Of a DNA stretch of 33,169 nt, positions 1,008 to 31,414 are shown piece after piece. The first letter of the stretch is position 1, and each line of letters begins with the position of its first letter. The position numbers were made by a program, and so were the translations under genes. Source of the DNA: Minisyncoccota bacterium (GTDB lineage Bacteria > Patescibacteriota > Microgenomatia > Levybacterales > UBA12049). The notes below the pieces were generated by a model. The model had not been told where the DNA came from. It ran no database searches and saw only the letters and a list, made by a program, of their open reading frames with translations. The stretch is from contig JANWIQ010000059.1 in assembly GCA_025449795.1 (NCBI GenBank), positions 1-33,169 on the forward strand, read 5' to 3'.

Positions 1008-1035
1008 GTCTATGAAAAAGTCTATGAAAAAGTCA
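1008..1035 (+). repeat. 12-bp tandem duplication spanning the start codon of the second GT4 gene
   Basis: GTCTATGAAAAA occurs twice (1008-1019 and 1020-1031) plus a partial GTCA. It gives MKKS MKKS and two in-frame ATGs (1012 and 1024). Confidence 0.9.
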
Positions 1036-4415: not shown

Positions 4416-4503
4416 CCTCATCACAGTCTTCTCACCACAAGGGCACTACCTTCGCAGAAGGGTCGCCTAAAAGGAGAAGAAGAGTAAGGAGACATGATAA
4501 TAG

Positions 4504-5277: not shown

Positions 5278-6440
5278 GGAGAGAGTTGTTTTACTTTTAG
5301 GAGAAATAAAACAATGAGGGCTATATTAAGGAGAGAAAAACAAATAGATAGAAATACCTGCTTTTTTCCAGAAAGAAATTGTTTATAAAATTGCGCAAGA
5401 CCGAAAGATAAGAATGGTAAAAGAGAGATAAATATTCTTGCTGAGTAACTAGCACCTTCCCACCAAATATTCCATGAAGCGATAAAGTACACTTCTATCA
5501 AAATTATTACAGCCATTGGAATGCCGATTAAAAAATGTTTTTTAACAAAAAAATATAACCCTATTGCAGCTAGTAATGTTATCGGTGTCCACAGAAAGAA
5601 GCCGTCATACCAATTAAACAGAACCCCAATTATATTAGGCTGAAAAAAGTTAAAAACAAATGTATATGTGAATGGACTTTTTAAGGGATTACCCCATAAA
5701 ATTGCCCATAAATAAGATTGGGGAAAAAGACAAAGTAGGAGGCCTGCTATCACCACAAGAAAATTGCGTATATAAGAGGACTTTCTTTGTAATAGCGTTG
5801 CAAGAGGAAGCAAAAAGAAGATAATGTCCTGTGTATGGCTAAGCGTTGCCATACCTATGGATATGCCAAGTAGGATTGTATTTTGCAATGAATATGCAGA
5901 TAACCACGCGTATAAGGCAAGGCTTGTAAAGAAAAATGAACTACTGTGTGAATTAAGGACGTCAAGAGCACCGTAAAAGAAAAGGTTAGTAGAAAAAAAT
6001 ATTGTGAGAATAACAAGAAATGAGAGTTGCTTGGAAAAGAATTTGTGCAGTGATAGAAAAAGGAAAAACAATCCTGCGAATACCATTGTAATACTCCATA
6101 TTCCCACAGGTATTTGTACTAGTGCATTGTAAGGATTAGCATTTCCAATTAAAGAAAATAATAAATAACTTACCAAATAGGGAAGGCTCCATGTCAGTGC
6201 AGGACCTATGGGAAGAGGATCTTGTAAAAAATGGGTTGGGGTATAGATAAAAGGTAATCCATATACATGGAAAGTTTTGGAAAAATTAAAGGTATGTTCT
6301 ATAAGAAAAGTGGGTAAGTAGCTGTAGTAATATCTGCCATCCCCATAAACAGCTGTCTTCACAAGGTAAAAGTGTGCAAGAAAAACTGCTATTGCAAAGA
6401 AAAATGAAATAAAAAATATGCGTCTTTGGATACTGTTCAT
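5274..6440 (-). CDS. Polytopic membrane protein, possible GT-C-type glycosyltransferase
   Basis: 388 aa and almost entirely hydrophobic helices. It sits inside the glycosylation cluster. Its stop overlaps the convergent GT2 stop (5274-5277). The family is not recognisable by eye. Confidence 0.45.
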   Translation of the reverse strand: MNSIQRRIFFISFFFAIAVFLAHFYLVKTAVYGDGRYYYSYLPTFLIEHTFNFSKTFHVYGLPFIYTPTHFLQDPLPIGPALTWSLPYLVSYLLFSLIGNANPYNALVQIPVGIWSITMVFAGLFFLFLSLHKFFSKQLSFLVILTIFFSTNLFFYGALDVLNSHSSSFFFTSLALYAWLSAYSLQNTILLGISIGMATLSHTQDIIFFLLPLATLLQRKSSYIRNFLVVIAGLLLCLFPQSYLWAILWGNPLKSPFTYTFVFNFFQPNIIGVLFNWYDGFFLWTPITLLAAIGLYFFVKKHFLIGIPMAVIILIEVYFIASWNIWWEGASYSARIFISLLPFLSFGLAQFYKQFLSGKKQVFLSICFSLLNIALIVLFLLKVKQLSP

Positions 6441-6482
6441 GCCTCAATTATCTTACTATGCTAGAATATAATAGTAAAGGAT

Positions 6483-7232
6483 ATGGGTATTTCGGCAGTT
6501 GTCCTCACAAAAAATTCTGAGAAGACAGTAGATGTTACTCTGGCCAGTCTTATCTGGTGCGATGAAATCGTTGTTATTGACGATAATTCAACAGACAATA
6601 CGCGAGCTGTTGCAAAAAAATATACTTCCAGAATTTTTATCCACACATTATCCGAAGATTTTTCTTCACAAAGAAATTATGGGTTAGAAAAAGCGAGACA
6701 AGACTGGATACTTTTTGTGGATAGTGACGAGGTAGTAGACGAGGCTTTACGAGAGGAAATTATTCTGAGAATAAAAAGTTTGTCTCAGGTCAACGGATAT
6801 TATATAAAAAGGGAAGACGCCATGTGGGGAAGGAAATTGTCATACGGGGAGACAAAAAATATGTGGCTTTTACGGCTTGCTAAAAAGGGAAGCGGGGTAT
6901 GGCAGGGAAAAGTGCACGAAGAATGGAAGATAATAGGAGAAAAAGGGAGACTTAGAAATCCCCTTTCGCACTTCCCTCACCCGAATGTGCATGATTTTCT
7001 TACTAGCATAAATAAATATTCCACCATCCGTGCAAAAGAACTTTATGAGAAAAAAGTAGGTGTATCCTGGATAGATGTTATTTTGTATCCAAAGGCAAAG
7101 TTTTTTCTCAATTATATTCTCAGACAGGGATATAAAGACGGCATTCCAGGATTTCTTGTAGCTATTTTAATGAGCTTTCATTCATTTCTCGTGAGAGGGA
7201 AATTATGGCAACTACAAAATTCTCACAAATAA
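6483..7232 (+). CDS. Glycosyltransferase family 2
   Basis: 249 aa. N-terminal GISAVVLTKNSEKTV...VVIDDNSTDNT and the FVDSDE (DxD) motif. AAGGA lies just upstream of the ATG. Confidence 0.8.
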   Translation: MGISAVVLTKNSEKTVDVTLASLIWCDEIVVIDDNSTDNTRAVAKKYTSRIFIHTLSEDFSSQRNYGLEKARQDWILFVDSDEVVDEALREEIILRIKSLSQVNGYYIKREDAMWGRKLSYGETKNMWLLRLAKKGSGVWQGKVHEEWKIIGEKGRLRNPLSHFPHPNVHDFLTSINKYSTIRAKELYEKKVGVSWIDVILYPKAKFFLNYILRQGYKDGIPGFLVAILMSFHSFLVRGKLWQLQNSHK

Positions 7233-8641
7233 CATATTTAATTTTCACCGCCATACTTACTACATTATTCTGCTTGGCTATCGGACTTAATCTTTCACCA
7301 CTTCTTCGTGGCCCTGCGCCATATCCACCGGAGTGGCAATGGGTATATCAATTTACCAATACTTTGCAAAGAGTGTGGGCGCCAGGGATAGTTGGGGTAT
7401 TAGGGATAGTAGGGTTATTGTATTTTGAAAAAAAACAACGAAAAGGATTTATATTCTTTGCTATTGTCTTTTTACTACTCTTACAGGTAAGTATATTGTA
7501 TTTCAGCAGGTCAGGTATAGCGGTAGTACTTGAAAGAATTATTAATCCCGGGATAACAGGATATTTTACTACTGCACTTTCTGTGCACAGCGTGGGAAAT
7601 TTTTTAGGAAGTTTCCAACAACAAGTAAGCCACTTTCCCATGCGGGCTGCTGACCATCCGCCTTTCGCGGTCCTTTTCTTTTCTTTAATTCTTTTAGCTA
7701 GCCAACAACTGTCATTTTTATTCCCTTTTGTGGAAGGGATTACTATTCACCATAGCGATATAGCACATATCTGGAGTAGTTTACTTGCCTTTCAAAAGTT
7801 GGCGGCACTTTTAAGTACAATACTTATTCCCTTCTTAAGTACACTTGTCATAGTGCCGTTGTATTACTTTACCAGAGTTTACTATGACCAAAAGACGGCA
7901 ATTCGTGCTGCCATGCTCTATAGTGTATTTCCGGCAATATCTCTTTTCCTGCCTGTAAATGATGTATTTTTAGGGATATTTGGGATGTTAGGTTTTTTGG
8001 AGGTATTGTTGGGTCTTCGACAAGCTCAGACAAAAAAAGCGTTTCTTTTCTATTTTTTTGCAGGAATATCTGTTGCCGTTGGCGCTTTTTTTAGTGCCTC
8101 CCTTCTAGCGGTGGTGGGAATGGTAGGGTTATTTTTTCTTTTATCGCCTCTTCCATCAAAGGAAAAGATTTTAGGGGGATTAGGGATTTTAGGGGGATTA
8201 GGGATATTACCAATACTTTTATTTATTTTTTATCACTTTAACACGATTAGTGTATTTATTGAAATTACGAAACTCCAGGCGAAGAGAAGTTATTTGCCAT
8301 GGGTATTTTATGACATATATGATTTCTTTATCTTTTCAGGAATCCCGGTACTTACTGCTTCCATACTGATTTTGTGGAAATTTCTTTCTCTTGCCAAAAA
8401 TAAAATCCACAATGATGTATTGATAATAAGTTTTTTCTTTATCCTTTTTCTTTTAGATATATGCGGTTTTTCCAGAGCCGAGACAGGAAGGATATGGATG
8501 CCATATATGCCTATATTAGCTATTATTGTAGCTGGGGTTTTAACAAAAAAAGGAATCACAACAAAAACTTTTGTGATAATCTTGGTACTGCAATTATTAC
8601 AGTTGTTAATAATGCAGGAATTTTGGGTTACACTTTGGTGA
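7205..8641 (+). CDS. Polytopic membrane protein, possible GT-C-type glycosyltransferase
   Basis: 478 aa with many TM helices. It overlaps the upstream GT2 gene by 28 nt. Its TGA stop (8639-8641) lies 1 nt before the next ATG. It contains an in-frame 18-bp tandem duplication (ILGGLG x2). Confidence 0.5.
   Translation: MATTKFSQITYLIFTAILTTLFCLAIGLNLSPLLRGPAPYPPEWQWVYQFTNTLQRVWAPGIVGVLGIVGLLYFEKKQRKGFIFFAIVFLLLLQVSILYFSRSGIAVVLERIINPGITGYFTTALSVHSVGNFLGSFQQQVSHFPMRAADHPPFAVLFFSLILLASQQLSFLFPFVEGITIHHSDIAHIWSSLLAFQKLAALLSTILIPFLSTLVIVPLYYFTRVYYDQKTAIRAAMLYSVFPAISLFLPVNDVFLGIFGMLGFLEVLLGLRQAQTKKAFLFYFFAGISVAVGAFFSASLLAVVGMVGLFFLLSPLPSKEKILGGLGILGGLGILPILLFIFYHFNTISVFIEITKLQAKRSYLPWVFYDIYDFFIFSGIPVLTASILILWKFLSLAKNKIHNDVLIISFFFILFLLDICGFSRAETGRIWMPYMPILAIIVAGVLTKKGITTKTFVIILVLQLLQLLIMQEFWVTLW
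8168..8203 (+). repeat. Perfect 18-bp tandem duplication inside a membrane-protein CDS
   Basis: ATTTTAGGGGGATTAGGG occurs twice (8168-8185 and 8186-8203), encoding ILGGLG ILGGLG in frame. Confidence 0.9.
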
Positions 8642-8642
8642 T

Positions 8643-10391
8643 ATGAAAAATTTGTATTTTGGTTTAATTGCTTTTGTTTTATTTGCTTTTGCAAGTATAT
8701 ATATTACTTTTCCTTTAATTTTCCACATGACAAATTATGTCACAGGGGAATTGGTTGTGTCATGGATTATGAATTGGAATATTCATGCAATTATGCATGG
8801 AGTGTGGGCGCAGCCAGGTGCCTGGCAGGCATTTTTTGATGCAAATATTTTTTACCCTTACCACAATACACTTGCATATTCCGATTTACTTTTATCATCA
8901 AGTATCTTTGCATTACCACTTTTTATATTTGTCCATGAGCCGGAATTGCCTTCCAATATTACTTTTATTTCTAGCCTTATTTTGTTGGGATTTTTTACTT
9001 ATATTCTTGTTTTTTATCTCACAAAAAATTTCTTTGCCTCTCTTCTTTCAGGATTGCTTATTATTTTTTCACCAGTAACGCTGGATAAGCGTTTTCACTT
9101 ACAAATCCTTGCTATAGAATGGGTACCACTTGCCTTACTATTTTTTCTACACTTTTTAAAAACCAAAAGATATAAATTTCTTATCTTGAGTTTGTTTTTC
9201 TTTGTTGTTCAAACTTATAACAGTTTCATGGCAGGATATTTTCTTGTTTTTTCCTATACCGGAGTAGGGTTATCCTATCTCGTGTCTAATGGGAAGAAAA
9301 TAGTTTCCCTTGTTACAAAAAAAACGATCCTATTCTCTCTTTTAGCTTTTGTTTTGATTTTTCCAATTATTGTTCCTTACTATCAAGTATCCCATGAATT
9401 TTCCTTTGTTCGGGATATTCGGGAAACTATTCATCTGGCCCTGCAACCTGAAGATTTACTGGTGACCAATGAAACAAGCAGATTAAAGCCAATACTATGG
9501 TTTTTTGACGCAAAACAATATCCCTCGTCTGCTGAAGTGAAGCCCGGGTTTTTAGGATTGATTTTTACAATACTTGCTCTTGTAAGTTTTACCTACATCT
9601 TCTTAAAGCAAAAATCAAAAAAAAGATTCTCGACAAGCCAGAATGACGTTACTCTCTTGGCATTTGTGGGTGTCGCATTATGGGGACTGGTATTAAGTTT
9701 GGGTCCGGCACTTCATATAGGTCGTCTTACTATTCACCATCCATTTTTAATCCCTTTACCATATGCTATAGCGTATTATGTCCTTCCCGGATTTCAGGGA
9801 ATACGGGATAGCTCACGTTTTGAAATGCTTTTTGTCATAAGTATTGCTATCGTAATAGGGATTGTCATTGATCAATTGCTTAAGAAAAGAAAACTTTACA
9901 TAAAAACTCTCGTTTGGACCGTACTATTAATCGCAGTTATGGGAGAGTTTGTGGGACCAATTAACTATGGAAGTGCTTATACTTTTGAAAACTTTCCACA
10001 AGTATATACGTGGATAGCAAAAAATACTCCTACAACTGCCGTGATTTTGGAAGAGCCAGTATACAACTGGGACAATAATCCTTTTGGTGACAATAGGGAA
10101 GTGTTGCGTGAATATTTTTCCACACTCCATTTTAGGAAGTTGATTAGTGGTGGAAGCGGATTCTCCCCTCCTCCATGGCAACAATTTGCCAAAAGCCAAT
10201 TCGCTAATTTTCCATCTCCTGCAAGCGTATTACAAGTAAAGAAGTACGGAGCAAATTATCTTATTGTGCACAAAGGTGAGTTTGATATTCTAAAAAAGAA
10301 TGGAGACTATGTATTATCTATGCTCTCCCAAAATTCCCATCTTCGATTTATAATAAAAGAAGGAGACGATTATGTATATGAAGTTAAATAG
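8643..10391 (+). CDS. Polytopic membrane protein with C-terminal soluble domain, possible GT-C-type glycosyltransferase
   Basis: 582 aa with an N-terminal multi-TM region and a roughly 170-aa hydrophilic C-terminus. It is tightly packed with its neighbours. Confidence 0.5.
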   Translation: MKNLYFGLIAFVLFAFASIYITFPLIFHMTNYVTGELVVSWIMNWNIHAIMHGVWAQPGAWQAFFDANIFYPYHNTLAYSDLLLSSSIFALPLFIFVHEPELPSNITFISSLILLGFFTYILVFYLTKNFFASLLSGLLIIFSPVTLDKRFHLQILAIEWVPLALLFFLHFLKTKRYKFLILSLFFFVVQTYNSFMAGYFLVFSYTGVGLSYLVSNGKKIVSLVTKKTILFSLLAFVLIFPIIVPYYQVSHEFSFVRDIRETIHLALQPEDLLVTNETSRLKPILWFFDAKQYPSSAEVKPGFLGLIFTILALVSFTYIFLKQKSKKRFSTSQNDVTLLAFVGVALWGLVLSLGPALHIGRLTIHHPFLIPLPYAIAYYVLPGFQGIRDSSRFEMLFVISIAIVIGIVIDQLLKKRKLYIKTLVWTVLLIAVMGEFVGPINYGSAYTFENFPQVYTWIAKNTPTTAVILEEPVYNWDNNPFGDNREVLREYFSTLHFRKLISGGSGFSPPPWQQFAKSQFANFPSPASVLQVKKYGANYLIVHKGEFDILKKNGDYVLSMLSQNSHLRFIIKEGDDYVYEVK

Positions 10392-10491
10392 GCAACAAGT
10401 TTTCCTTACCGGATTTGTTTTATGGGTTTTAGTTGTATTTATTTTGTATATCCAGTTTTTACTTTGTAGAGGACATATATGTTTACGCTAG
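10372..10491 (+). CDS. Possible 39-aa single-TM small ORF, or the displaced N-terminus of the next gene
   Basis: AGGAG (10361-10365) lies 6 nt before ATG 10372. The ORF encodes MYMKLNRQQVFLTGFVLWVLVVFILYIQFLLCRGHICLR. It ends 13 nt after the ATG of the next gene, in another frame. It is not in the ORF track because it is under 60 aa. Confidence 0.25.
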   Translation: MYMKLNRQQVFLTGFVLWVLVVFILYIQFLLCRGHICLR

Positions 10492-12077
10492 GATTACTTA
10501 TTGGCATTTACGCATACAGTATTTTTCTTCTGGGATTATTGCACCTCTTGTATGTACCAGTGGTGTGGATTTTTACTTTTGGCTTTATTGGTGGGAGTAT
10601 CTATTGCTACCGAAAGAAATTAGAAGAAATTAGTAAGATAAAAAGGGTGAGAGAAAGAAAAATAGGTACGCCCTCTTTTCTTCTGTTATGTATTCTTATT
10701 GTCCAGGCAGGAGTAAATTTGATTGGTGTTTTAGGTCCAGAGCTGGGTTTTGACGCATTATGGTACCACCTTACTTTACCTAAGATTTATCTCATGGGGC
10801 ATGCAGTGTCTTATATCCCAGGAGGCCTTTTTCTGTATTCCACTATGCCAAAACTTTTAGAGCTGCTTTATATAGGCGGGTTGTCCTTTGGGTCTGCGAT
10901 ATTTCCAAAATTAATTCATTTTGGTTTTGGATTATTGACACTTGTTGTACTGTACCAAATAGCAAGAAGATTTTTGTCTCGACCTATGTCTTTTTTGGTT
11001 CTGGTAATTTTCTATGCAAATTTGGTAGTGGGATGGGAATCTATAAGCGCATACATTGACCTTGGTAGGACATTTTTTGAGTTGCTTTCTTTTTCTGCTC
11101 TGCTTTCATGGATAGAAACCAAAGATAAAAAGTTTTTTTATTATAGCGCGCTTTTTATAGGATTTGCTATTACAACCAAGCTTCTTGCTGTTGGTTCGTT
11201 GCTTTTATTTCTTATCCTTATATACATGGTATTACGAAGAAAAAATATACCTTTGTTGCGGCCTTTTCTGTCATATATGATGATTACTCTTCTTATTCCA
11301 CTTCCCTGGTTAGTTCTTTCTTTTATTAATACAGGTAATCCCGTCTATCCATTTTTTTCTTCAACCTATCCAATTTCCTTGCCCTGGCAGCTTATTAACC
11401 CACGCTATTTTGTGACTAGTTTTTGGAATTTATTTCTTTATTCACCGGATCCAATTAACCCAATCTATCTTATGGTATTGCCCATTTTTTTTGTATACAT
11501 GGGGAAGTGGTCATATGAATTGCGTCTTATTTTTTTCTATAGCATAGGTGGATTCGTGTTGTGGTACATTACTCCACAAACAGGCGGAGGACGTTTTATT
11601 ATTCCCTATTTGCCTCTTTTATCACTTATGAGTGTGTTAGCGATCTTATCACTTGGAAAAAAAAGAATAAAACAGTTTCTTGTTATTGTTGCGATTGTAC
11701 TGGCACTAGTTTCCATTGGATATAGGGGCATTGCAAATGCAAAGTTTGTTCCGGTTATTCTGGGAAAAGAGACAGAAAGTCATTTCTTGGCAAAACACCT
11801 CAATTTCTCTTTTGGGGATTTTGCCGATACAGATGGGTATTTTGCAACACATATAAAGTCTACAGATACTGTTTTACTCTACGGATTCCATAATGAATAT
11901 TACGTAGATTTTCCTTTTATCGATGCGACTTTTGTAAAAAAAGGCGATGAATTTAGCTATATTGCTGCGCAAAATACTGCACTTCCAGCACGTTTTCGGA
12001 ATTGGAATTTGGTGTATATCAACCCAATTACCCATGTAAGCCTGTATAGTATTGGAGGGATTCCATGGACATATTAA
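10479..12077 (+). CDS. ArnT/PMT-like (GT-C fold, GT39/GT83-like) membrane glycosyltransferase
   Basis: 532 aa and polytopic. An early loop motif LGPELGFDALWYHL is followed by many TM helices and a C-terminal soluble tail, as in PMT_2/ArnT-like proteins. GAGG lies 6 nt upstream of the ATG. Confidence 0.55.
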   Translation: MFTLGLLIGIYAYSIFLLGLLHLLYVPVVWIFTFGFIGGSIYCYRKKLEEISKIKRVRERKIGTPSFLLLCILIVQAGVNLIGVLGPELGFDALWYHLTLPKIYLMGHAVSYIPGGLFLYSTMPKLLELLYIGGLSFGSAIFPKLIHFGFGLLTLVVLYQIARRFLSRPMSFLVLVIFYANLVVGWESISAYIDLGRTFFELLSFSALLSWIETKDKKFFYYSALFIGFAITTKLLAVGSLLLFLILIYMVLRRKNIPLLRPFLSYMMITLLIPLPWLVLSFINTGNPVYPFFSSTYPISLPWQLINPRYFVTSFWNLFLYSPDPINPIYLMVLPIFFVYMGKWSYELRLIFFYSIGGFVLWYITPQTGGGRFIIPYLPLLSLMSVLAILSLGKKRIKQFLVIVAIVLALVSIGYRGIANAKFVPVILGKETESHFLAKHLNFSFGDFADTDGYFATHIKSTDTVLLYGFHNEYYVDFPFIDATFVKKGDEFSYIAAQNTALPARFRNWNLVYINPITHVSLYSIGGIPWTY

Positions 12078-13258
12078 CAGGGCTTTTTATTAGTGTTTTT
12101 CTTGTCTTTTTACCTCTTGGCCAGTTGATGCGAATTCCTTTTCAAGGGTTTACTATCGTAGGACTGGATGCTGTTGTTTGTTTGACAGCAATTGTGTGGA
12201 TAATAAAAACATTTAAAAAGTGGGAAAAGCCGAAATTACTTTTTCTTCCAGTAAGTATCTTTTTAGCTGCAGGCATTTTTTCTTTGCTTGCCAATGTTAT
12301 GTGGTTGAGTGGAAATGAGCTCTTTATTTCATGGTTATACCTTGTAAGGTTGGCTTCATTCATGGCTTTTTTATGGATTGCAAAAGAAATCTCAAAAAGG
12401 TCGCCAGCACTCATGCAAAAACTCTTACTGGTTGGTGGGGGAATTGTAATGGTGTTGGGACTACTGCAATATATATTTTTTCCATCGTTACAACCTTACT
12501 TATATCTTGGATGGGATAACCATTTTTACCGGGTATTTTCAACTTTTTTAGACCCCAATTTTGTGGGAGCATTTTTGGTATTGTATTTCTTTTACCTTGC
12601 ATTCCTTTTATTGCAAAATTATCAACACCAACAAAAGAGATGGCTTTTTGGAATGATTTCCTTCCTTAGTTTACTTGCGGTTTTCCTAACATACTCACGA
12701 AGCGCTTATCTTATGTTGGGAGTCGGCATTGTTATTTCTCTCTGGAGTTTAGGACAAAAAAAACTCATTCTTGGTGCAGTTGGAATACTCGCTGTTATTA
12801 TTTTGTTATTTGGGGTATTCCACCGTTATGGTGAAGGAAATAATTTACTCCGGACGGTATCTATTGAGTCTCGCTTAGGAAGCATGACCACTGCGCTTAC
12901 CATTTTTACTAAAGAGCCAGTATTTGGTACCGGATTTGACAGTTACCGATACGCCCAAAGGAGATATGGATTTTTAGGAGGTAATATTTGGGAAGCTACT
13001 CATGCAGGCGCAGGGACAAGTAATAGCTTTTTATTCGTACTTGCGACGACTGGCATAGTAGGATTTGGTGCATATTTTTTCTTGCTGTATAGTCTTTTCC
13101 AACAAGCGAAAGTTATATCAAAGAAAAATAAACTGTGGGGAGTATTGCTATGCGTGTCTCTTTTCTCCCTATGTGTTGATGCACTTTTTGAAAATACTCT
13201 TTTTTATCCGAGCATTATGTTGTGGATATTTACTTTGATAGGAATTGCCTCACCCTAG
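12065..13258 (+). CDS. O-antigen ligase/polymerase-like (Wzy_C domain) membrane protein
   Basis: 397 aa and polytopic. The central motif FLTYSRSAYLMLGVG and a periplasmic loop with THAGAGTSNSFLFVLATTGIVG are typical of the O-antigen ligase family. It overlaps the upstream gene by 13 nt. Confidence 0.7.
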   Translation: MDILTGLFISVFLVFLPLGQLMRIPFQGFTIVGLDAVVCLTAIVWIIKTFKKWEKPKLLFLPVSIFLAAGIFSLLANVMWLSGNELFISWLYLVRLASFMAFLWIAKEISKRSPALMQKLLLVGGGIVMVLGLLQYIFFPSLQPYLYLGWDNHFYRVFSTFLDPNFVGAFLVLYFFYLAFLLLQNYQHQQKRWLFGMISFLSLLAVFLTYSRSAYLMLGVGIVISLWSLGQKKLILGAVGILAVIILLFGVFHRYGEGNNLLRTVSIESRLGSMTTALTIFTKEPVFGTGFDSYRYAQRRYGFLGGNIWEATHAGAGTSNSFLFVLATTGIVGFGAYFFLLYSLFQQAKVISKKNKLWGVLLCVSLFSLCVDALFENTLFYPSIMLWIFTLIGIASP

Positions 13259-13261
13259 CCC

Positions 13262-13276
13262 TCTCCTAAGAGGAGA
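13262..13276. terminator. Short hairpin between the convergent O-antigen-ligase-like and Ig-like genes
   Basis: TCTCCT-aag-AGGAGA lies in the 41-bp convergent gap. It has a weak stem and no clear T-tract. Confidence 0.25.
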
Positions 13277-13299
13277 AGGAAACCAAGGAAAACTTATTC

Positions 13300-14040
13300 C
13301 TACTGGTTGAAGTTGATGTTGAAGTCTTTTTGCGTTTGGTTACCCGCACTGTCCTGTGCAACGACGCTAATATGGTTGCTTCCGTTTTGCAGATGAAGCG
13401 TGTAGGAGTAATTGCCGCTCCCATCTACTATGGCCCAAAAACCATTGACAGTAATTCGTATATCTCCATTATCTGTTTTCCCTTTTACTGTTACCTCCTG
13501 TTGACTACTTCCTGAGAACGTTTGTCCGTCATTTGGGCTGTCCACGGTAAGGCTTGGCGCTTTATTGGTATAGGAAATAGTAAGCGCATTGGAAAAATCA
13601 CTTTCCTTATTACTCAATTTCGCTTTTGCAGAAATTGTGTTACTGCCACTATTGAGCGTGACATTATTAAAATGAAAGGATCCATCATCTTTGGTGTCTA
13701 CAATATCTGTGAGGTTATTGTTGACAAATAGTTCAACTTTTTCTTTGGGGGAAGCGCTGCCGCTTATCGTAATTTGTGCGCTATTGGTTGCGGTGAAGGA
13801 TTGGGTAAGGACTGGTGGAAAAACAAGTTGTTGGTTTTGTGCCTTTTGGGCTGCAATTTGTTGGTCTTTACCCTGGGCAAGAAAAAGACTGAAGTTGATA
13901 AGTGCCGGAATACCGAATTTCACAAGCAAAAAGAGAATAATAATTATTCCTGCAAGAGATAAGTATAAATTCTTTTTGGTTTTTTTCTCTAATGTCCTAT
14001 TTAGACGTGATTTAACCATATATTTATAAAGTTTATGCAC
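13300..14040 (-). CDS. Membrane-anchored surface protein with two Ig-like (bacterial Ig fold) repeats
   Basis: 246 aa with a basic N-terminus and one TM helix (LYLSLAGIIIILFLLVKFGIPALI). Two related beta-rich S/T/N/G-rich modules follow (…VELFVNN…DGSFHFNNVTLNSGSNTISAKA and …ITVNGFWAIVDGSGNYSYTLHLQNGSNHISVVAQDSAGN). Confidence 0.45.
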   Translation of the reverse strand: MHKLYKYMVKSRLNRTLEKKTKKNLYLSLAGIIIILFLLVKFGIPALINFSLFLAQGKDQQIAAQKAQNQQLVFPPVLTQSFTATNSAQITISGSASPKEKVELFVNNNLTDIVDTKDDGSFHFNNVTLNSGSNTISAKAKLSNKESDFSNALTISYTNKAPSLTVDSPNDGQTFSGSSQQEVTVKGKTDNGDIRITVNGFWAIVDGSGNYSYTLHLQNGSNHISVVAQDSAGNQTQKDFNINFNQ

Positions 14041-22132: not shown

Positions 22133-22495
22133 CTATTCTGAGTATTGTTGGTCTACTTCATCCAAAACAGTTTCCAGTTGGTCTCTTAAATTCATTTCAT
22201 ATACCATATCATTATCAACAAGTGTGACACCAAGCAAGAGTGATGGATCTTCGGTAAAGACGATTTCTTTTTTGGGAAATAGTTTCTCAAGATCTTTCTT
22301 ACTCGTATTATATACAGAAGTTTTCGGCATGGCAACAAAAAGCTTTTTTTGTTGTTCCATAAGCTTGAGAGCACGTAGGTATGCTTTTATGTCCTTTCTG
22401 TCAAGACGATTTGTAATTTCATCCACGCGTTGAGGATTTAATTTTTCTTTTTGATAACTTGCCAAAACAAGTTGTTGTAATAATCTTTTTGTCAT
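22133..22495 (-). CDS. atpH: Short ATP synthase delta (OSCP-like) subunit
   Basis: 120 aa, positioned between atpF and atpA. The C-terminal DPSLLLGVTLVDNDMVYEMNLRDQLE resembles the delta C-terminal pattern. The N-terminal domain is much shorter than usual. Confidence 0.6.
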   Translation of the reverse strand: MTKRLLQQLVLASYQKEKLNPQRVDEITNRLDRKDIKAYLRALKLMEQQKKLFVAMPKTSVYNTSKKDLEKLFPKKEIVFTEDPSLLLGVTLVDNDMVYEMNLRDQLETVLDEVDQQYSE

Positions 22496-23462: not shown

Positions 23463-24209
23463 TCAATGGGTTTCGGAAGGGCTAGCCTCATCACTGTGAT
23501 GGGCTGTCATAAGAATACTCATAAAGCCCATAGTCAAAATTGCGAAAACCAATGCCTGGACTAGTGCCACAATTATCTCAAGCGCCATAAATGGCAATGG
23601 GAGAAGGAAAGCAAAAATTCCTGAGATAGTTGAAAGTACGACCTCTCCCGCAAATATATTACCAAAAAGTCGAAAAGAAAGCGAGATGATATTAGTAAAT
23701 ACAGATAGAAGTTCTAGGATACCCACAAAAAGAAAAATAGGATTCCATGAAAGATACCGAGCAATGTGGCCTTTTACCCCAACAGCACGTATTGCCAACA
23801 CTTGGGTTGCAACGGTAGCGACAAGTGCGAGCGCAAGGGTAGTATTAATATCGCTAGTCGCACTTCGCAGAAGCGGGATAGCATCTTCGCCTTTATGAAT
23901 AAAAATAGTGCCGAATCCAGGGAAAAGAGCAGTAATATTGGCTACCAGGATAATAGTAAAAAATCCCATAAACCATGGAAAGATTTTTTTTGCATTGTGT
24001 CCGGAAATTGACTCAGTAAGAGAATATAGTCCATCAATGACGTATTCTACTGCGTTTTGAAACATACCAGGAGTCTTCGTGAGGTTTTTGCTGAGTATGA
24101 TGACACCGCTGACAATAAGTACATCCACAATAGTGGTATGCAAAAGCGTGTTGGTAAAAGGGAGTGGGCCAACCTGAAAAAGAATTTCTGGTGCTAATGG
24201 CGCTGCCAT
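23463..24209 (-). CDS. atpB: Fo ATP synthase a subunit
   Basis: 248 aa and polytopic. Contains the signature LSFRLFGNIFAGE with the essential Arg. Confidence 0.95.
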   Translation of the reverse strand: MAAPLAPEILFQVGPLPFTNTLLHTTIVDVLIVSGVIILSKNLTKTPGMFQNAVEYVIDGLYSLTESISGHNAKKIFPWFMGFFTIILVANITALFPGFGTIFIHKGEDAIPLLRSATSDINTTLALALVATVATQVLAIRAVGVKGHIARYLSWNPIFLFVGILELLSVFTNIISLSFRLFGNIFAGEVVLSTISGIFAFLLPLPFMALEIIVALVQALVFAILTMGFMSILMTAHHSDEASPSETH

Positions 24210-24255: not shown

Positions 24256-24687
24256 TTAGTGGAAGGTTCGTCGTGAAGTTCTTTTTTGGGCAGATTTTTC
24301 CATTCGCGGTGCATACTTTTCTGCATGAAGGAGTGCAGCAGCTGGTCCTTTTGTAAGATCGATAAGAGCTAATCGATCTGCGCGTTGTTGTGTAAGGTGC
24401 AGGATTTTAGTTTCTGCGTCGCCATTTTTTTCTCTCGTATTCACTCCTGCAAAGATATAGATATCCCATGCTGGGGTATATCCGGGGTGTAGTTCCACGA
24501 GGGCATGCCTTATATGCCTTCTTTGTTGCCGAAAAACATCTTGATAGAGCCCTTCCAAAGCGGCACCATCTGTAGTGATATAGTTTATCGATCCATCTCC
24601 CAATGGAGGAGATGGGGTTTCTCCAGGATGCATGGTACTCTTTTTACGGTAGTACATTTGTTTTAAAATTGTGTAAGAGTTTGTCAT
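24256..24687 (-). CDS. Hypothetical soluble protein, 143 aa, family not recognised
   Basis: ATG at 24685-24687. It has no TM helices and is basic at both termini. It ends 46 nt upstream of the atpB start, in the position where atpI is often found, and is divergent from the DnaE-like gene. Confidence 0.5.
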   Translation of the reverse strand: MTNSYTILKQMYYRKKSTMHPGETPSPPLGDGSINYITTDGAALEGLYQDVFRQQRRHIRHALVELHPGYTPAWDIYIFAGVNTREKNGDAETKILHLTQQRADRLALIDLTKGPAAALLHAEKYAPRMEKSAQKRTSRRTFH

Positions 24688-24723
24688 GTTCTTTCGATTC
24701 TTATATTGTTATTACCTATTATT

Positions 24724-24739
24724 CTGTCTCTCCTTACAG
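24724..24739. promoter_or_regulatory. CTGT-N8-ACAG palindrome (SOS-box-like) in the divergent promoter region
   Basis: TCTGTctctccttACAGA lies 22 nt upstream of ATG 24762. It has the form of the gammaproteobacterial LexA box, but the spacer is not AT-rich. Confidence 0.25.
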
Positions 24740-24761
24740 ACGCTGGGTATCGTTTGGTATC

Positions 24762-27431
24762 ATGTCCTCAGAGCGTGTTATCGCTGATTTCCAACCGCTT
24801 AATATTTCTTCATCTTACTCATTTTTAACCGACGAACCCGCAGTCTCTTCGCCAGGAAAACTTGCATCTGTTCTTTCCCAATATGGGTATATGCATTTTC
24901 CTCTTTCGGATACCACATTACTTTCCGAGGGAAGAGTTTTTCAATCTTCTGAAAAACATCAGCTTCGTCCTATTCCGGGACTAAGATTTTCCATGGATGT
25001 TTATTTTGGTCCTCCACAGGAAGGATTTATTTTGCCAAGAAATGATGAGGGCCTCCGCAGATTACATGGTGTATCTTCCCGTAAAAATATCAAAGGAGAA
25101 GGGATAACACCTGATGATATCCATAAAAATAAAGAAGATTGGTATACTTTTTTTACAGGGCCTATCTCTCCCTATGAGGTGTCAACACTGCTTTTGCTAG
25201 AAAATGTGTTTCGGGCAGTCAAGGATCCTCAGGAAATAGTCGCAGCACATCCTGCATTTGCTGGTTTTCTCCACGACAGCAAGAAAATTGTTGTTGCCCC
25301 AGAAGTGAGGATTGCTTTGCCGGAGGATACATGGAAATTGGCATGGCTTGCAAAAGCGAGTGGAAAAAGTCTTCCGTACGAGCTGGCTACGTATGCATTG
25401 AAAACTCCTGATGAAATGCGTCTTTTGTACGCTCATTATAAAGATGCACTTGGACTTTCCGCAGAAATTGCAAAAAACATTACTATCGTTAAACCATTAC
25501 CTCCTGATATACAGCCAGAAACGGTAAAACCAGGGTGGACGCCTGAAGCATATTTACGCTTGCTTGCCCATAATCTTGCTGGCCTTCCTGAAAATGCACA
25601 TCTCAGTGAACGGATTAAAGAGGAAGTAACAGAAATAACCGAAGCGAGATATGCAGGACTTGTATCAGCCATATTTTTAGTGAAGGAAGTCATCGAATTC
25701 TGCAAGTCTGCCAAGATCCCTATCAAAACAACAGGAAGTGCAAACAACAGTGTGCTGCTTTCGCTTTTGGGAGTTACCCAAGTCGAGCCAGATGAAGCAA
25801 ATGATTGTGATTTTTCTCGATTTCTCAATAGTGAACGCGTTGAAAAGCCGGATATTGATATGGAAGTCGGATACAAAGACAGAGAAGCTATCCTTGCTTT
25901 TTTGAAAAGAAAATATGGAGCGCACGCTGCAGAGATAATTATTCCCCACTTCATGAAAGACAAAACGGTCGAGCAATATATACGAAGAAAGCATATTCCT
26001 GCGATACCCAACGAAAGGATAGTACAGCTTGTTGCTGAAGAGATTCCTTTTAAGCTACAGCCTCACGGATCCAAGGTTGTGCTTCTTGGAAATGCCCCAT
26101 TTCGAAAACTCGGTGAAGAAGGGAAGTTAGTTGCTGATATTGACAGAATAGACGCGGAAAAGATTTTTGATTATACGGCTTTAGACTTTTTGCCACGTCA
26201 AGGGCCACAGCGATTACACCTAGCACAAGAATTTGCAAGAAAAAGACGTACATCCATTGTTGATACTCCTAATAACTCCGCTGTCATGAGACGAATATTT
26301 TCAGGAGATACTATGGGTATCCCTGATGTAGAAAGTCCTCATATGCAACAAACTCTGCAAAAATTTCATCTGGTAATCACGCAGCCGACCCGCGAAACAC
26401 TTGCAGATGCAATAGCAATATCGAAAGTCCGAAAAGGTGTGCGGGATAGATACCTTTCGTATAGGTATAGGGGTAAGGAATTATTGAGCACCGACGTGAT
26501 GCATGATTTAGGATTAAGAAGTCCGGTCATTTATCACCAGGAAGATTTGGCAATTGTCGCACGTGCTGCAGGCTTTTCACTGTCACAAGAAGAAGCAGTA
26601 AGAAAAATGTTGAGTGATAGGGATGTAACGGCGGGTGAGAAAGAAGAAATTATCCAAAAAATCATTGTAGGACTAGGGGAACATGGTTATAGCAAAAGAG
26701 TACAACAAGAACTTCGGATGCAAATGGAAAGCTATGTAGGATATGTATTGGTGCGTGGGCATGCACTGTCACTTGCTCATGGAGCCGAACAGGTTGCCAG
26801 GCATGCGGTATATGACCCGGTGGGTTTTTCTGCTGCAATACTCACCACGGTTGCAGAGTACTGGAATAGAAGCGATTATACTTTCCAGGGATACGTAAAT
26901 GATGTGCTTCGCCATAAAGTACAAATGGATTTTTCTTCAACAAGAAATAACATCCCCGAAACTCCTGAGATATGGCAAAATAAAATTGCAGTAAGTACTT
27001 CTATGCTTCGGGCAGGATTTGGGGGAAAATTGCCTGATGATTTTGCCCAACGCTACGCACTTTGGGTAGATACGCTAAAAGAGTGGAAAAAAGGAGCATA
27101 TGCAACTGCGGACTTAGTACATCTGGAGTGGGAGCTTTTTCATGCTTCTTTTACCCATAATCCTATTCTGCGTTTCGATAGTAACGTACGCTTTGATCCT
27201 GGACGCGACAAACAGGAAATAATAGTGCAGCCAATCGCAGCTCGTGAATTGTCAGAATCCGAAGTCTATCTCTTAACGCTAGATAGTGAAACAGTTTTCC
27301 GCGCTTCAATGCCGACCAGTAAAGGGAAAGGAGAAGATTTTTCTTATCCGTTTCTTAAAGTCCGGGTGCAAAGAAGCAATGGAGGATCAGGGGGTTGGGA
27401 AATAAAAGAAATACTTAGTGCGCATGCTTAA
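24762..27431 (+). CDS. Divergent C-family DNA polymerase (DnaE paralog; DnaE2/ImuC-like) with degenerate PHP domain
   Basis: 889 aa from ATG 24762. It aligns by eye with the neighbouring DnaE at these points: FQPLNISSSYSFLTD vs FVHLHNHSEYSLLDG; TTGSANNSVLLSLLGVTQVEPD vs GRGSAAGSVVSYCLRITDIDP; FLNSERVEKPDIDMEV..KRKYG vs FLNPLRPSAPDIDLDF..TEKYG; ALDFLPRQG vs KMDFLGLRN; GIPDVESPHM vs GIFQLESPGM; GYVLVRGHALSLAHGA vs GYGFNKAHAACYATIA. Confidence 0.85.
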   Translation: MSSERVIADFQPLNISSSYSFLTDEPAVSSPGKLASVLSQYGYMHFPLSDTTLLSEGRVFQSSEKHQLRPIPGLRFSMDVYFGPPQEGFILPRNDEGLRRLHGVSSRKNIKGEGITPDDIHKNKEDWYTFFTGPISPYEVSTLLLLENVFRAVKDPQEIVAAHPAFAGFLHDSKKIVVAPEVRIALPEDTWKLAWLAKASGKSLPYELATYALKTPDEMRLLYAHYKDALGLSAEIAKNITIVKPLPPDIQPETVKPGWTPEAYLRLLAHNLAGLPENAHLSERIKEEVTEITEARYAGLVSAIFLVKEVIEFCKSAKIPIKTTGSANNSVLLSLLGVTQVEPDEANDCDFSRFLNSERVEKPDIDMEVGYKDREAILAFLKRKYGAHAAEIIIPHFMKDKTVEQYIRRKHIPAIPNERIVQLVAEEIPFKLQPHGSKVVLLGNAPFRKLGEEGKLVADIDRIDAEKIFDYTALDFLPRQGPQRLHLAQEFARKRRTSIVDTPNNSAVMRRIFSGDTMGIPDVESPHMQQTLQKFHLVITQPTRETLADAIAISKVRKGVRDRYLSYRYRGKELLSTDVMHDLGLRSPVIYHQEDLAIVARAAGFSLSQEEAVRKMLSDRDVTAGEKEEIIQKIIVGLGEHGYSKRVQQELRMQMESYVGYVLVRGHALSLAHGAEQVARHAVYDPVGFSAAILTTVAEYWNRSDYTFQGYVNDVLRHKVQMDFSSTRNNIPETPEIWQNKIAVSTSMLRAGFGGKLPDDFAQRYALWVDTLKEWKKGAYATADLVHLEWELFHASFTHNPILRFDSNVRFDPGRDKQEIIVQPIAARELSESEVYLLTLDSETVFRASMPTSKGKGEDFSYPFLKVRVQRSNGGSGGWEIKEILSAHA

Positions 27432-28135
27432 TTTCCTTCTTTACGGGATGGGAGAACTACTAAATGCCATTGTGGTTTTTTTACCGTGCCAGCGAGAAGA
27501 CGCTTGCCTGTTGTTTTTAAGAGTTCTTTTAGTTCGGGACGCCGTACTGTTGTGGAGCGTATTACTTCTACGCGCGCGTTCACTTCGTCATCCTCTTTTA
27601 ACCGAAGCGTTGTGCGGACCGACCGACGGAATGCATCTTCCAAAATATGCCGTGCTTCTGGATGGCCATCAATATTTACTCGTAACAGTAGGGTATCATC
27701 ATGAGTTACCGCAGCAAAATTTTCATTTCCTAAGGATGCGTGCAATTTGTCTGCATCAAATTGATAGACAGGAAATATATTTAACACAGCTTTTTCTTCT
27801 CCAATAAATTCAAATCCACGAAAGTCTGTTCTTCCTGCGGCAAGAGCTTTTAAGTCATCTCCCAGCAACTCCTTTTGTGCCTGAAGTTGTTTGACTTCTC
27901 GGTCCAGATGTGCCACTCTTCTTCCTCTTTCTACAAGCAACGTAAGAAGATTTCTATGGTGAGACATGAGGATATCCGGCAAAACCCCTTTGTCGGTGCG
28001 TAGATTAACATCTGGTATAGGAGTTCCCCACGAATCAAATCGTGCACTTTCCAATTGCGTACTGGTAATAGCATCTCCTTTTTCTTGCGGAAATTGCTGC
28101 AAGACGGTATTTTCCTGAGTTCCTTGTTGTTCCAC
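27428..28135 (-). CDS. Hypothetical protein, 235 aa, family not recognised
   Basis: The ORF starts with GTG at 28133-28135, so the start is uncertain; the next Met is about 56 codons in. It has a coiled-coil-like stretch HLDREVKQLQAQKELLGDDLKALAAG. It lies 63 nt downstream of the dnaE stop on the same strand. Its stop overlaps the stop of the DnaE-like gene (27428-27431). Confidence 0.5.
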   Translation of the reverse strand: MEQQGTQENTVLQQFPQEKGDAITSTQLESARFDSWGTPIPDVNLRTDKGVLPDILMSHHRNLLTLLVERGRRVAHLDREVKQLQAQKELLGDDLKALAAGRTDFRGFEFIGEEKAVLNIFPVYQFDADKLHASLGNENFAAVTHDDTLLLRVNIDGHPEARHILEDAFRRSVRTTLRLKEDDEVNARVEVIRSTTVRRPELKELLKTTGKRLLAGTVKKPQWHLVVLPSRKEGN

Positions 28136-28198: not shown

Positions 28199-31100
28199 TT
28201 ATACTGCTATGGGTTTTTTAATAGCGTTGACAATAATCACCGGCTTATCATTTTTCTGATCCAGCTTTCCTTCAAATACCAATACCGTGTCGGTGAGGAG
28301 AATATCGCGATATAATTCATATACTTTTGGGAAAATAATGCACTCTATCGCAAGACCTTTCTCGTCACTGATAGAAAGGAATGCCATTTCTGCTTGCGTT
28401 TTCTTGGTAAAAATACGTTTTACATTTTCTACTATGCCACCTACTGTCACCTGTACCCCGTCATTTTGTCCTTCTAAAAGTTCAAATTCGTGACTGATCA
28501 TTGTCTTAATTTGTTGAAGATTTTCTGCTTGCGGATGGGCGGTAAGGTAAAATCCTAAAAATTCTTTTTCGAATGCAAGCTTTTCTCCAAGTGAAAAATC
28601 CTCAATCTCTAGCTCGGAAATAGTTGAAGAACCCTTTTTTACTTCGGTGTCCTCATCAAATAATGATTCTTGGCCTTCTTGTTTTTGCTTTTTTTGCTTG
28701 GTAATGCGTTCGGTTGTTTCGGAAAGAGATGCGAGAAGCAATGCGCGATTGCCAAATGCATCCATTGCGCCTGCCTTGATAAGGCTTTCCAGTGTTTTTT
28801 TATTTACCGCACCCAATTCCACCCGCTCACAAAAATTATTAAAAGAAGTAAATGGTCCTTGTGCTCTCGCCTCAAGAATAGTACGTATTGCGGCTTCCCC
28901 AACATTTTTAATTGCAGAGAGGCCAAAACGAATCTTAATATCCTCTTCAATGGAAAAATCTGCATCTGAAGTATTAATATCAGGAAGCAGCACGGGGATA
29001 GCAAGCCTTTTGCATTCTGCAACCGCCTGTGCAATTTTTTCTGATTTTGCAGGACCTGTTGTGCCTCGAGATTCTGCAGTAAAAAGTGCGGTCATAAATT
29101 CAACAGGATAGTGCGCTTTTAAATAGGCCGTCCGGTAGGCAATCGTTGCATAACAGGCGGCATGGGCTTTATTAAATCCATATCCAGCAAAAGGTGCAAT
29201 AAGCTCAAAGATTTCTTCAGCCCTCTTTTGTGAAAGACCTCCTTTTACCGCGCCTTCAAGGAATTTTTCCTTTTGTTTCTTCATTTCCGAGGGAATTTTC
29301 TTTCCCATTGCTTTACGGAATTTATCAGCATCCAACCAGGAATAGCCGGCAAGCGCAATGGTAGTAAGGAGTACGTCGTCCTGATAGGTGAGAATGCCAT
29401 AGGAATTTGCGAGGATTTCTTCCAGGCGAGGATCGGGAAAATCGATAAGCTCTGGATTATGTTTTCTTGCAATGAAAGATGGGATATTTTGCATAGGTCC
29501 GGGGCGGTAGAGAGCCACCATTGCCATAAGATCAAAAATCGTATTTGGTTTTAGCTCTTTAATATATCGGCGCATGCCAGGGGATTCAAGTTGGAAAATG
29601 CCCGTTGTTTCTGCTGAGGAGAGAAGGGTATATGTTGCTTGATCATCTACTGGTAGTTTGGAAATATCTATGGTAATGCCTTTATGTAATTTGATAAACC
29701 GTAGTGCTTCTTCGATAATAGTAAGATTGCGAAGCCCCAAAAAGTCCATTTTTAAAAGGCCAACGCCATCTTCGCCTACCGTATACATGTCGTATTGCGT
29801 AACAACTTTTTCGCCGCCATTTGGTTCTCTTTGGATAGGGACATACTCGGTAAGTGGTTTATCTGCAATCACGACACCTGCAGCATGTACGGAGGCATGT
29901 CTGACAACGCCTTCAATTTTTTTAGAAAGGTCGATAAGCTTTTTTGTTTCCGGCTCCTGCAAATATGCCCTCTTGAGGTCTGGACTTTGGTCCATTGCGC
30001 TGTCGAGTGTCATCGCATGTCCTTGCCACCCCAATGGAATCATTTTCGAAATTCTATCTGGGCCAGCATAGGGCATACCCAGTGCGCGTCCAACGTCCCT
30101 TACGCTTCCTTTTGCTTCCATAGTACCAAAGGTAATAATCTGTGCTACCTTGTCGTCACCATATTTTTCCGTTACGTATTGAATAACTTCCTCACGTCTA
30201 ATATCTGCAAAATCTAAGTCTATATCTGGTGCCGAAGGTCGAAGTGGATTTAAAAATCGTTCAAAAGGTAACTTAAAGAAAAATGGGTCAATATCAGTAA
30301 TGCGAAGACAGTAGCTTACTACTGAGCCTGCTGCAGATCCTCGTCCCGGTCCAACGCTTATCATGTGGTCTTTTGCCCAATTTACAAAGTCCGCAACCGT
30401 AAGAAAATAGGTGGAGTATCCTTTGGAGGTAATCGTAGAAAGCTCATATTGTATCCGTCCGGTAATTTCGGGGGTTATTTTCCCATATCGTTTTTTGGCT
30501 CCTTCCCACACAAGCTCTTCCAAATATGCATCTTCACTTTTTCCATCTGGTGTAGCAAATTTTGGCATTACCCATTTGCCAAGAGTAATTTCTACATTGC
30601 ACCGATCGGCAATCGCGACACTATTTTGTAATACCTCAGGCATTTGTGGAAAAGCGGCTTGCATTTCCTCTGCTGATTTTAGGTAAAAATCCGGAGAATC
30701 TATCATACTTAATTTTCTTCCCTTGTCGTCGATGGTTGTTTGGGTCTGAATGCAAAGAAGGATTTCTTGTGCCTGTGCGTCATCTTTATGTGAGTAATGG
30801 TTGTCGTTGGTTGCAACCATGGGAATTCCAAGTTTTTTAGAGAGTGCAATAAGGCGTGGATTTAAAACTTCTTGCGGTGGGACATGGTCGTGTTTTTGCA
30901 ACTCCAAGTAGAAATGGTCAGGACCAAAAATCTCTGCAAGTTTTTTGGCACGTTTTTCTGCTTCTATTTGTTGGTTATTCAAAAGTGGTTCGGATACAAA
31001 GCCATTCACACATGCGGAAAGACAAATAAGTCCATCGTGATACTCCTCCAGGAGCGCAAGGTCGGTACGGGGTTTGTAATAATAGCCCTCCAAATGTGCC

Positions 31101-31414
31101 TTTGAGACAATCTTCATGAGATTTTTGTATCCGATATTGTTTTCTGCAAGAAGAATGAGGTGGTTATATCCTTTTTCATCTTTTACCAATCTGCTGCCGG
31201 CAGTAATATAAATTTCACATCCAATAATGGGTTTTATTCCTGCCTCTTTGCATGCTTTGTAAAAGTAAATAACTCCATACATTGAGCCATGGTCGGTAAT
31301 GCTTAATGCTTTTTGGCCTACATCCTGGGCCCGTTTTATCATCTGTTTTATTTTGGAAAGGCCATCAAGAAGGGAATATTCTGAGTGGTTGTGTAAATGG
31401 ACAAAATCTGGCAT
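28199..31414 (-). CDS. dnaE: DNA polymerase III alpha subunit (canonical replicative DnaE)
   Basis: 1071 aa. It has intact PHP ligands (FVHLHNHSEYSLLDG, ITDHGSMYG), the catalytic PDIDLDF and MDFLGLRNL motifs, a clamp-binding-like QESLF, and a C-terminal OB-fold region. Confidence 0.97.
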   Translation of the reverse strand: MPDFVHLHNHSEYSLLDGLSKIKQMIKRAQDVGQKALSITDHGSMYGVIYFYKACKEAGIKPIIGCEIYITAGSRLVKDEKGYNHLILLAENNIGYKNLMKIVSKAHLEGYYYKPRTDLALLEEYHDGLICLSACVNGFVSEPLLNNQQIEAEKRAKKLAEIFGPDHFYLELQKHDHVPPQEVLNPRLIALSKKLGIPMVATNDNHYSHKDDAQAQEILLCIQTQTTIDDKGRKLSMIDSPDFYLKSAEEMQAAFPQMPEVLQNSVAIADRCNVEITLGKWVMPKFATPDGKSEDAYLEELVWEGAKKRYGKITPEITGRIQYELSTITSKGYSTYFLTVADFVNWAKDHMISVGPGRGSAAGSVVSYCLRITDIDPFFFKLPFERFLNPLRPSAPDIDLDFADIRREEVIQYVTEKYGDDKVAQIITFGTMEAKGSVRDVGRALGMPYAGPDRISKMIPLGWQGHAMTLDSAMDQSPDLKRAYLQEPETKKLIDLSKKIEGVVRHASVHAAGVVIADKPLTEYVPIQREPNGGEKVVTQYDMYTVGEDGVGLLKMDFLGLRNLTIIEEALRFIKLHKGITIDISKLPVDDQATYTLLSSAETTGIFQLESPGMRRYIKELKPNTIFDLMAMVALYRPGPMQNIPSFIARKHNPELIDFPDPRLEEILANSYGILTYQDDVLLTTIALAGYSWLDADKFRKAMGKKIPSEMKKQKEKFLEGAVKGGLSQKRAEEIFELIAPFAGYGFNKAHAACYATIAYRTAYLKAHYPVEFMTALFTAESRGTTGPAKSEKIAQAVAECKRLAIPVLLPDINTSDADFSIEEDIKIRFGLSAIKNVGEAAIRTILEARAQGPFTSFNNFCERVELGAVNKKTLESLIKAGAMDAFGNRALLLASLSETTERITKQKKQKQEGQESLFDEDTEVKKGSSTISELEIEDFSLGEKLAFEKEFLGFYLTAHPQAENLQQIKTMISHEFELLEGQNDGVQVTVGGIVENVKRIFTKKTQAEMAFLSISDEKGLAIECIIFPKVYELYRDILLTDTVLVFEGKLDQKNDKPVIIVNAIKKPIAV

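Follow-up and report, generated by a model that had tools for sequence, protein, structure and literature searches.

The window described here is a stretch of 33,169 nucleotides (nt) from contig JANWIQ010000059.1 of a Minisyncoccota bacterium (assembly GCA_025449795.1). Beside its canonical replicative dnaE it encodes a second, shorter DnaE-like DNA polymerase of 889 amino acids (aa), referred to in this text as pol889. Judged by its modelled fold and its active-site residues, pol889 is a genuine C-family polymerase of the Pol III alpha superfamily, and on balance it is probably a functional accessory enzyme that would serve repair or translesion synthesis without proofreading and independently of the clamp. 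Together with a small set of relatives, here named the short clade, it seems to form a rare, deeply branching and apparently undescribed branch of the C family. Surveys from 2014 and 2026 divide the bacterial C family into PolC and DnaE1-3 and give PHP-Pol3-(HhH)2 as its near-universal core (PMC3919608; PMC12926913). No group like the short clade is mentioned in the text of either survey (PMC3919608; PMC12926913). A monophyletic group with the catalytic core and the OB fold, minus the second HhH, the clamp motif and PHP chemistry, would extend the classification of the C family. It would also offer a natural minimal C-family polymerase, indicating what a replicase needs outside the replisome.

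Pfam models for the palm (PF07733, 1e-23, aa 278-430) and the fingers (PF17657, 5e-6, aa 504-633) match pol889, and the Pfam PHP, HHH_6 and OB models and an exonuclease domain find no match; of the profiles named in an earlier reading made from the letters alone (the sequence-only reading), palm and fingers were thus recovered and PHP and HHH_6 were not. The neighbouring dnaE is matched by the Pfam PHP, palm, fingers, HHH_6 and OB models, carries the QESLF clamp motif and 9 of 9 PHP ligands, and scores 1337 bits with the NCBIfam equivalog NF005298, which has a cut-off of 1260. By BLASTP, pol889 is 29% identical to this dnaE over the palm and keeps PDIDxE and LDFL. An AlphaFold2 (AF2) model of pol889, built from an alignment of 50 sequences, has a predicted local distance difference test (pLDDT) value of 90.4 and a predicted template modelling score of 0.90, and a Foldseek search with this model retrieves the Pol III alpha structures of Taq, M. 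tuberculosis and E. coli (2HPI, 7PU7 and 2HNH; E 1e-33 to 1e-29, TMq 0.64-0.71). The catalytic aspartates are D364 and D366 in PDIDME (25851-25859, + strand) and D475 in LDFL (26184-26186, + strand), and the GS nucleotide-binding motif is G325/S326; all five residues are invariant in the 20 family members and the 30 DnaEs aligned. Across the wider polymerase site (G, S, D, D, D, R, K, Y, H), pol889 agrees with nearly all of the other 19 members, and the Asp triad, GS motif, Lys and His are conserved in 20 of 20. The earlier proposal of a real, highly divergent C-family paralog is therefore upheld by the Pfam palm and fingers matches, the AF2 model, the Foldseek result and the catalytic residues.

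The predicted domain order of pol889 runs from a degenerate PHP through the palm, a reduced thumb and the fingers to a remnant of the beta-binding domain and a terminal OB fold. The PHP-like N-terminal domain covers about aa 1-200 (24762-25361, + strand). In a column table against canonical DnaEs it keeps 0 of 9 PHP metal ligands (N S T - R E G E R in place of HHDHEHCDH); the nine are intact in every aligned ordinary DnaE1, and no family member keeps them all. With all nine ligands lost, pol889 would have no built-in proofreading. The polymerase core of palm and fingers, placed by Pfam and alignments, spans 25593-26660 (+ strand), and the C-terminal OB fold (aa 817-886; 27210-27419, + strand) is seen as beta strands in the AF2 model. 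Local Foldseek matches of the last 70 residues are to SSB, IF1 and the OB domain of LysRS. Because the protein terminates after this fold, 3 residues past its last strand, it lacks a tau-binding C-terminal domain. Two deletions relative to canonical DnaE are family-wide, namely residues 463-502 in the thumb and residues 865-937, which hold the second HhH and QESLF.

A word-indexed search with pol889 returned only the protein itself and ordinary DnaEs at 23-34% identity. An exhaustive phmmer search of 1.84 billion representatives returned 19 full-length relatives of 800-900 aa (P0123-P0141; E 9e-81 to 1e-26), each as one match stretch across the entire protein; ordinary DnaEs rank after them at E 1e-25 or worse and are matched in the core only. 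Shared family motifs are GS[GA]NNS, ESPHM, FVEGHA and, before the terminal OB, FTHNP, which read GSANNS, ESPHMQ, (V)RGHA and FTHNP in pol889. The pol889 frame is nested in a longer open reading frame (ORF) beginning at 24603. Read from the ATG at 24762, its N-terminus lines up with those of the relatives (MxxER...), and this alignment, together with a -10-like hexamer 8 nt upstream, speaks for that ATG as the genuine start codon. Pfam recognizes palm and fingers in 20 of the 20 members, PHP in 15 and HHH_6 in none. None of the 20 members scored reaches the curated NCBIfam cut-offs for DnaE1, DnaE2 or PolC; the best DnaE1 model gives pol889 113 bits against a cut-off of 1260, and PolC models give weak matches in only 5-6 of the 20. 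A neighbour-joining tree was built with DnaE1, the window dnaE, four labelled DnaE2 sequences and P0142. In this tree the family and P0142 are monophyletic in 100 of 100 bootstraps and are set apart from DnaE1, the four DnaE2 and the window dnaE by a long branch. Identity is 28% inside the clade versus 21% to other DnaEs.

The family amounts to about 20 clusters among 1.8 billion representatives. Housekeeping proteins of the contigs that bear it are singletons too, so its true spread has probably been under-sampled. Source organisms are known for two members: that of the window, placed among the Patescibacteria with Levybacteria-like Microgenomates by an AtpB scan of species-representative genomes, and one Woesebacteria genome (locus L086). 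Searches of Joint Genome Institute (JGI) metagenome contigs and IMG/VR with family-specific motifs, with the single protein and with a 10-member alignment found no members. Phage genomes match the common core only, at 23-28% identity, and never cover 80% or more of pol889, and BFVD structures are no closer to it than cellular structures.

Functionally, pol889 would stand closest to DnaE2 without being DnaE2. The DnaE2 (ImuC) polymerases are error-prone members of the C family and include the subgroups DnaE2A, DnaE2B and DnaE2X (PMC12926913; PMC3919608). Like pol889, DnaE2 is an accessory copy beside a canonical DnaE, has a dead PHP site together with an intact polymerase site, retains the OB fold and lacks the C-terminal domain for tau binding; among the models scored, the best score for pol889 also comes, by a narrow margin, from "error-prone DNA polymerase" of NCBIfam. 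However, the DnaE2 model NF004225 gives pol889 only 126 bits against a cut-off of 939, and the short clade branches outside the DnaE2 sequences sampled; pol889 thus does not fall in ordinary DnaE2, a grouping that would have told against the sequence-only reading. Members of the short clade have 800-900 aa whereas DnaE2 has about 1000-1100 aa, and pol889 is without the second HhH and the clamp-motif region. In addition, no ImuA, ImuB, PolY or ImuB-C gene and no ImuA, ImuB or Y-family domain lies beside the family gene at any of the 12 loci compared (the window and 11 further loci, ten of these 11 with DNA).

DnaE1 (2HNH, 2HPI, 7PU7) shares with pol889 the fold and domain order through the fingers, the catalytic triad, the GS motif and an LxxExxLGxxxxxHP-like motif ahead of the OB fold. 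In contrast to DnaE1, pol889 has a dead PHP, has lost about 40 aa of the thumb and a further 73 aa with the second HhH and QxSLF clamp motif, lacks the C-terminal domain and is only about 21% identical; a true DnaE1 is encoded next door. PolC has a DnaQ-type exonuclease in its PHP and an N-terminal OB, whereas pol889 has no exonuclease domain and its OB is C-terminal. Short phage DnaE-like polymerases (PHROG 405; 860-960 aa in BFVD) are alike in size and in missing C-terminal modules (TMq 0.57-0.74), but their identity is 12-16% and the genomic contexts of the short clade are cellular.

The role favoured for pol889 is read from residue conservation and domain loss, and this holds for its activity, its clamp independence and its part in repair or translesion synthesis. 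The polymerase keeps every residue required for nucleotidyl transfer, and the losses of PHP, second HhH, clamp motif and tau domain suggest a distributive enzyme, tolerant of errors, that would work apart from the replisome, probably in gap filling, lesion bypass or damage-induced mutagenesis. In candidate-phyla-radiation bacteria, which have a small repair repertoire, such a polymerase might contribute to damage tolerance or mutagenesis. The sequence-only reading had raised a non-canonical mutagenesis or translesion cassette; the polymerase half of that idea finds support in the conserved residues and lost domains, and the cassette half does not, as no conserved partners were found. Several observations weigh against the favoured role. 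Clamp independence is deduced from an alignment gap and the lack of a recognizable motif, and the enzyme may yet use a non-canonical motif or an adaptor protein; a degenerate version of the first HhH may also persist. Since the neighbour-joining tree has long branches and includes no more than four labelled DnaE2, pol889 could conceivably be an offshoot of DnaE1 or a very derived DnaE2. The lack of ImuA, ImuB and Y-family genes is a statement about the window and the other loci, and such genes may lie elsewhere in the genome. Mobile or defence genes near several relatives could also point to a different role.

In the window, pol889 (24762-27431, + strand) is the middle gene of a three-ORF block between the atp operon and dnaE, an arrangement that the sequence-only reading had described and the ORF list confirms. 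On one side lies orf143 (24256-24687, - strand, 143 aa), on the same strand as atpB and 46 nt upstream of it; atpB itself (23463-24209, - strand) opens the atp operon and forms one edge of the insertion site. On the other side lies orf235 (27428-28135, - strand, 235 aa, GTG start), which is convergent with pol889 and sits 63 nt downstream of dnaE (28199-31414, - strand, 1071 aa), on the same strand as that gene. Both compact junctions described earlier are present in the sequence, namely the 74-nt intergenic region between the divergent orf143 and pol889 (24688-24761) and the TTAA common to the convergent stop codons of pol889 and orf235 (27428-27431). In a log-odds scoring of codon usage, with the remaining genes of the window as training set and host genes at 0.16-0.36, orf143, pol889 and orf235 are above zero in the annotated frame only, at 0.11, 0.205 and 0.209, respectively. 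All three ORFs have the GC1>GC2>GC3 pattern of the host, and all three look coding, with orf143 as the weakest call. The GC content of the block, 0.41-0.44, is that of the atp genes and dnaE.

The two flanking ORFs seem to be fast-evolving orphans. Each matches only itself among 5.8 billion proteins, and neither has a match in Pfam, NCBIfam or PADLOC even at E<=1; PHROGs give nothing beyond one chance-level match of orf143 (E 0.34). The proteins and their profiles have no PDB sequence match and no significant phage match. Both translations lack a visible Walker A motif, and neither ORF shows the RecA-like fold with P-loop of ImuA. Nor do they resemble Y-family or ImuB proteins (IMS, about 400-500 aa), with no match and lengths of only 143 and 235 aa. 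The statement that the neighbours are not ImuA or ImuB and belong to no recognizable family is thus well founded, by the library scans, the missing Walker A and the lengths. The coiled coil ascribed to orf235 comes down to one long helix (residues 52-99), with an alpha/beta region after it, in a single-sequence AF2 model of low confidence (pLDDT 45).

The block lies at a variable spot in otherwise stable surroundings. By tblastn, gatB-dnaE-atpB-atpE synteny holds in >20 related Levybacteria-like genomes, and in about half of these dnaE and atpB are <100 nt apart. The closest relatives carry 0.7-1.4 kb of unrelated cargo in this gap, consisting of a HAD hydrolase (L001 and L002), a 228-aa ORF on the opposite strand (L003) or a membrane protein (L004), and none of these genes resembles the window block. 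The block is therefore a lineage-specific 3.99-kb insertion. As an observation on the site itself, the dnaE-atpB junction is a gene-gain hot spot in Levybacteria-like genomes (L001-L004, L007, L041, L043, L062, L069), where the contents vary between HAD hydrolase, membrane protein and orphan ORFs; elsewhere the two genes are directly adjacent.

A -10-like hexamer, TATCGT (24748-24753), ends 8 nt before the ATG of pol889. Such hexamers end 6-8 nt before the start codon at 7 of the 12 family loci, against a background of 0.31 matches per offset, and the forms found upstream of the polymerases of L081-L087 are TATACT, TATAGT, TAAAGT and TACAGT. This position close to the start codon suggests leaderless or near-leaderless transcripts for the polymerase family, and pol889 probably has its own promoter and an mRNA of this kind. 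No shared operator emerged when the regions ahead of the 12 polymerase genes were searched for palindromes.

Besides an accessory polymerase working alone, the block could be a true module in which the polymerase is joined by small, fast-evolving partners of the orf235 and/or orf143 kind, as a non-canonical analogue of ImuA-ImuB-DnaE2. This is rather unlikely, yet it has evidence to recommend it. A convergent ORF of 175-235 aa that overlaps the polymerase stop codon recurs at 4 of the 12 loci (window, L084, L086, L092). Those of L086 (12651-13199, - strand) and L092 (10543-11070, - strand), whose polymerases belong to one subclade, are clearly homologous (about 180 aa, 33% identity, Smith-Waterman score 180, z 36) and have a weak link (z 6.7) to an ORF in the vicinity of the polymerase of L089. 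A significant distant homolog of orf235 lies 1.9 kb from the L083 polymerase (7374-8132, - strand; 27% identity over 106 aa, Smith-Waterman z about 7, with 0 of 500 shuffles reaching the score). The polymerases themselves are only about 28% identical, so small partners could escape detection. However, the L083 homolog differs from orf235 in position and orientation, and since homologs were sought only near polymerases, its association with them is uncontrolled. By hhalign, the orf235 group shows no relation to the L086/L092 group, nor does either group to the L084 ORF (probability <1%), and the L086/L092 protein has no Pfam, PHROG or PDB match. For orf143, no similarity was found to the neighbours of other family polymerases. 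Neighbours at the other loci are unrelated or annotated: a ribbon-helix-helix (RHH)-PIN toxin-antitoxin pair at L081, two Cro/C1-type helix-turn-helix (HTH) paralogs with an HD-like gene and a PD-(D/E)XK gene at L083, AbiEii at L086 (in the Woesebacteria genome, with the atp operon 6 kb away), a serine-integrase fragment at L087, an acetyltransferase at L088, MazG at L091, a DEAD-box helicase at L092, and membrane proteins as well. BLASTP, Smith-Waterman with shuffling, hidden Markov model searches and hhalign gave only the orf235-L083 and L086/L092 links as conserved neighbours, and the trio does not recur among the 11 other family loci. The "three-gene locus" of the sequence-only reading thus fails as a conserved cassette, with orf143 lacking relatives and orf235 having a single distant and displaced one; as the orphans are not consistently linked to the polymerase family, the trio is better described as a neighbourhood.

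The block might instead belong to a mobile element or defence island, as its cargo or as what is left of it, with a polymerase that replicates the element or makes DNA for defence. The variable insertion spot within conserved synteny, the sporadic and extremely rare occurrence of the family, and the company kept by its relatives (the integrase fragment of L087, RHH-PIN of L081, AbiEii of L086 and the HTH, PD-(D/E)XK and HD-like set of L083) would all suit such an origin. It is nevertheless improbable. Scans for repeats, promoters and terminators, Rfam families and tRNAs found no flanking repeats, tRNA, Rfam RNA or other element boundaries at the block, which also has no integrase; none of the three block proteins matches a PADLOC model (E<=1), and GC content and codon usage are those of the host. 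IMG/VR yielded no member by the family-specific motifs, and the viral resemblances stop at the common core and at structures no closer than cellular ones. Harder still to credit is a tandem duplication of the neighbouring dnaE, with pol889 as the decaying copy and two spurious ORFs beside it, and this part of the earlier reading is rejected. The proximity of dnaE, the loss of PHP ligands, HhH region and clamp motif, and flanking ORFs without homologs are what decay might leave behind. But pol889 is no closer to the window dnaE, with which it shares its 29% palm identity, than to other DnaEs, and the two fall in different clades. Its 889-codon ORF is intact, its catalytic residues are invariant across a monophyletic 20-member family, its fold is confidently predicted and, in each of the three ORFs, the codon signal is confined to the annotated frame.

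A bolder version of the accessory-polymerase reading would take the short clade, so far placed only in Patescibacteria wherever a source organism is known, as a fifth major group of the bacterial C family. Its enzymes would be independent of the clamp, lack proofreading, be expressed from leaderless mRNA and act with tail-to-tail, fast-evolving partners (orf235-like and L086/L092-like). This combination is quite unlikely to hold as a whole; if true, it would give bacteria with ultra-small genomes a mutagenic or translesion system of their own, with no kinship to ImuA/ImuB or the Y-family polymerases.

Some further observations concern the loci used for comparison. At L083, the family polymerase gene is bracketed by two paralogs (9187-9906, - strand, and 12772-13590, + strand; BLASTP 5e-8), each with a C-terminal Cro/C1-type HTH and an N-terminal domain of no known family. 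The HD-like and orf235-like genes of this locus share one divergent operon, and the PD-(D/E)XK gene lies downstream. In L003, a close relative, the canonical dnaE (4711-9222) encodes 1503 aa, of which about 430 are inserted in the fingers motif GFNKAHA, with GFNK|C...HN|SHAAC as the boundaries; the window dnaE has no such insertion. The insertion looks intein-like, with a middle part that is homing-endonuclease-like. L001, L004, L008, L011 and others have Patescibacteria-like atp genes and dnaE and are titled "uncultured Gammaproteobacteria bacterium"; they are probably mislabelled bins.

Elsewhere in the window, 73-13258 holds a large cell-surface glycosylation cluster with several GT1, GT2 and GT4 glycosyltransferases, a YfhO-like and a PMT_2-like protein, an O-antigen-ligase-like membrane protein and three long ORFs that belong to no family; after it comes a protein that combines Ig-like and glucodextranase-B domains. 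In the atp operon, the delta-subunit position is taken by an ORF of 120 aa (22133-22495, - strand) that is not matched by the OSCP model and matches SpoVG only below threshold; this would suggest a delta subunit of ATP synthase that is shortened or has diverged very far.

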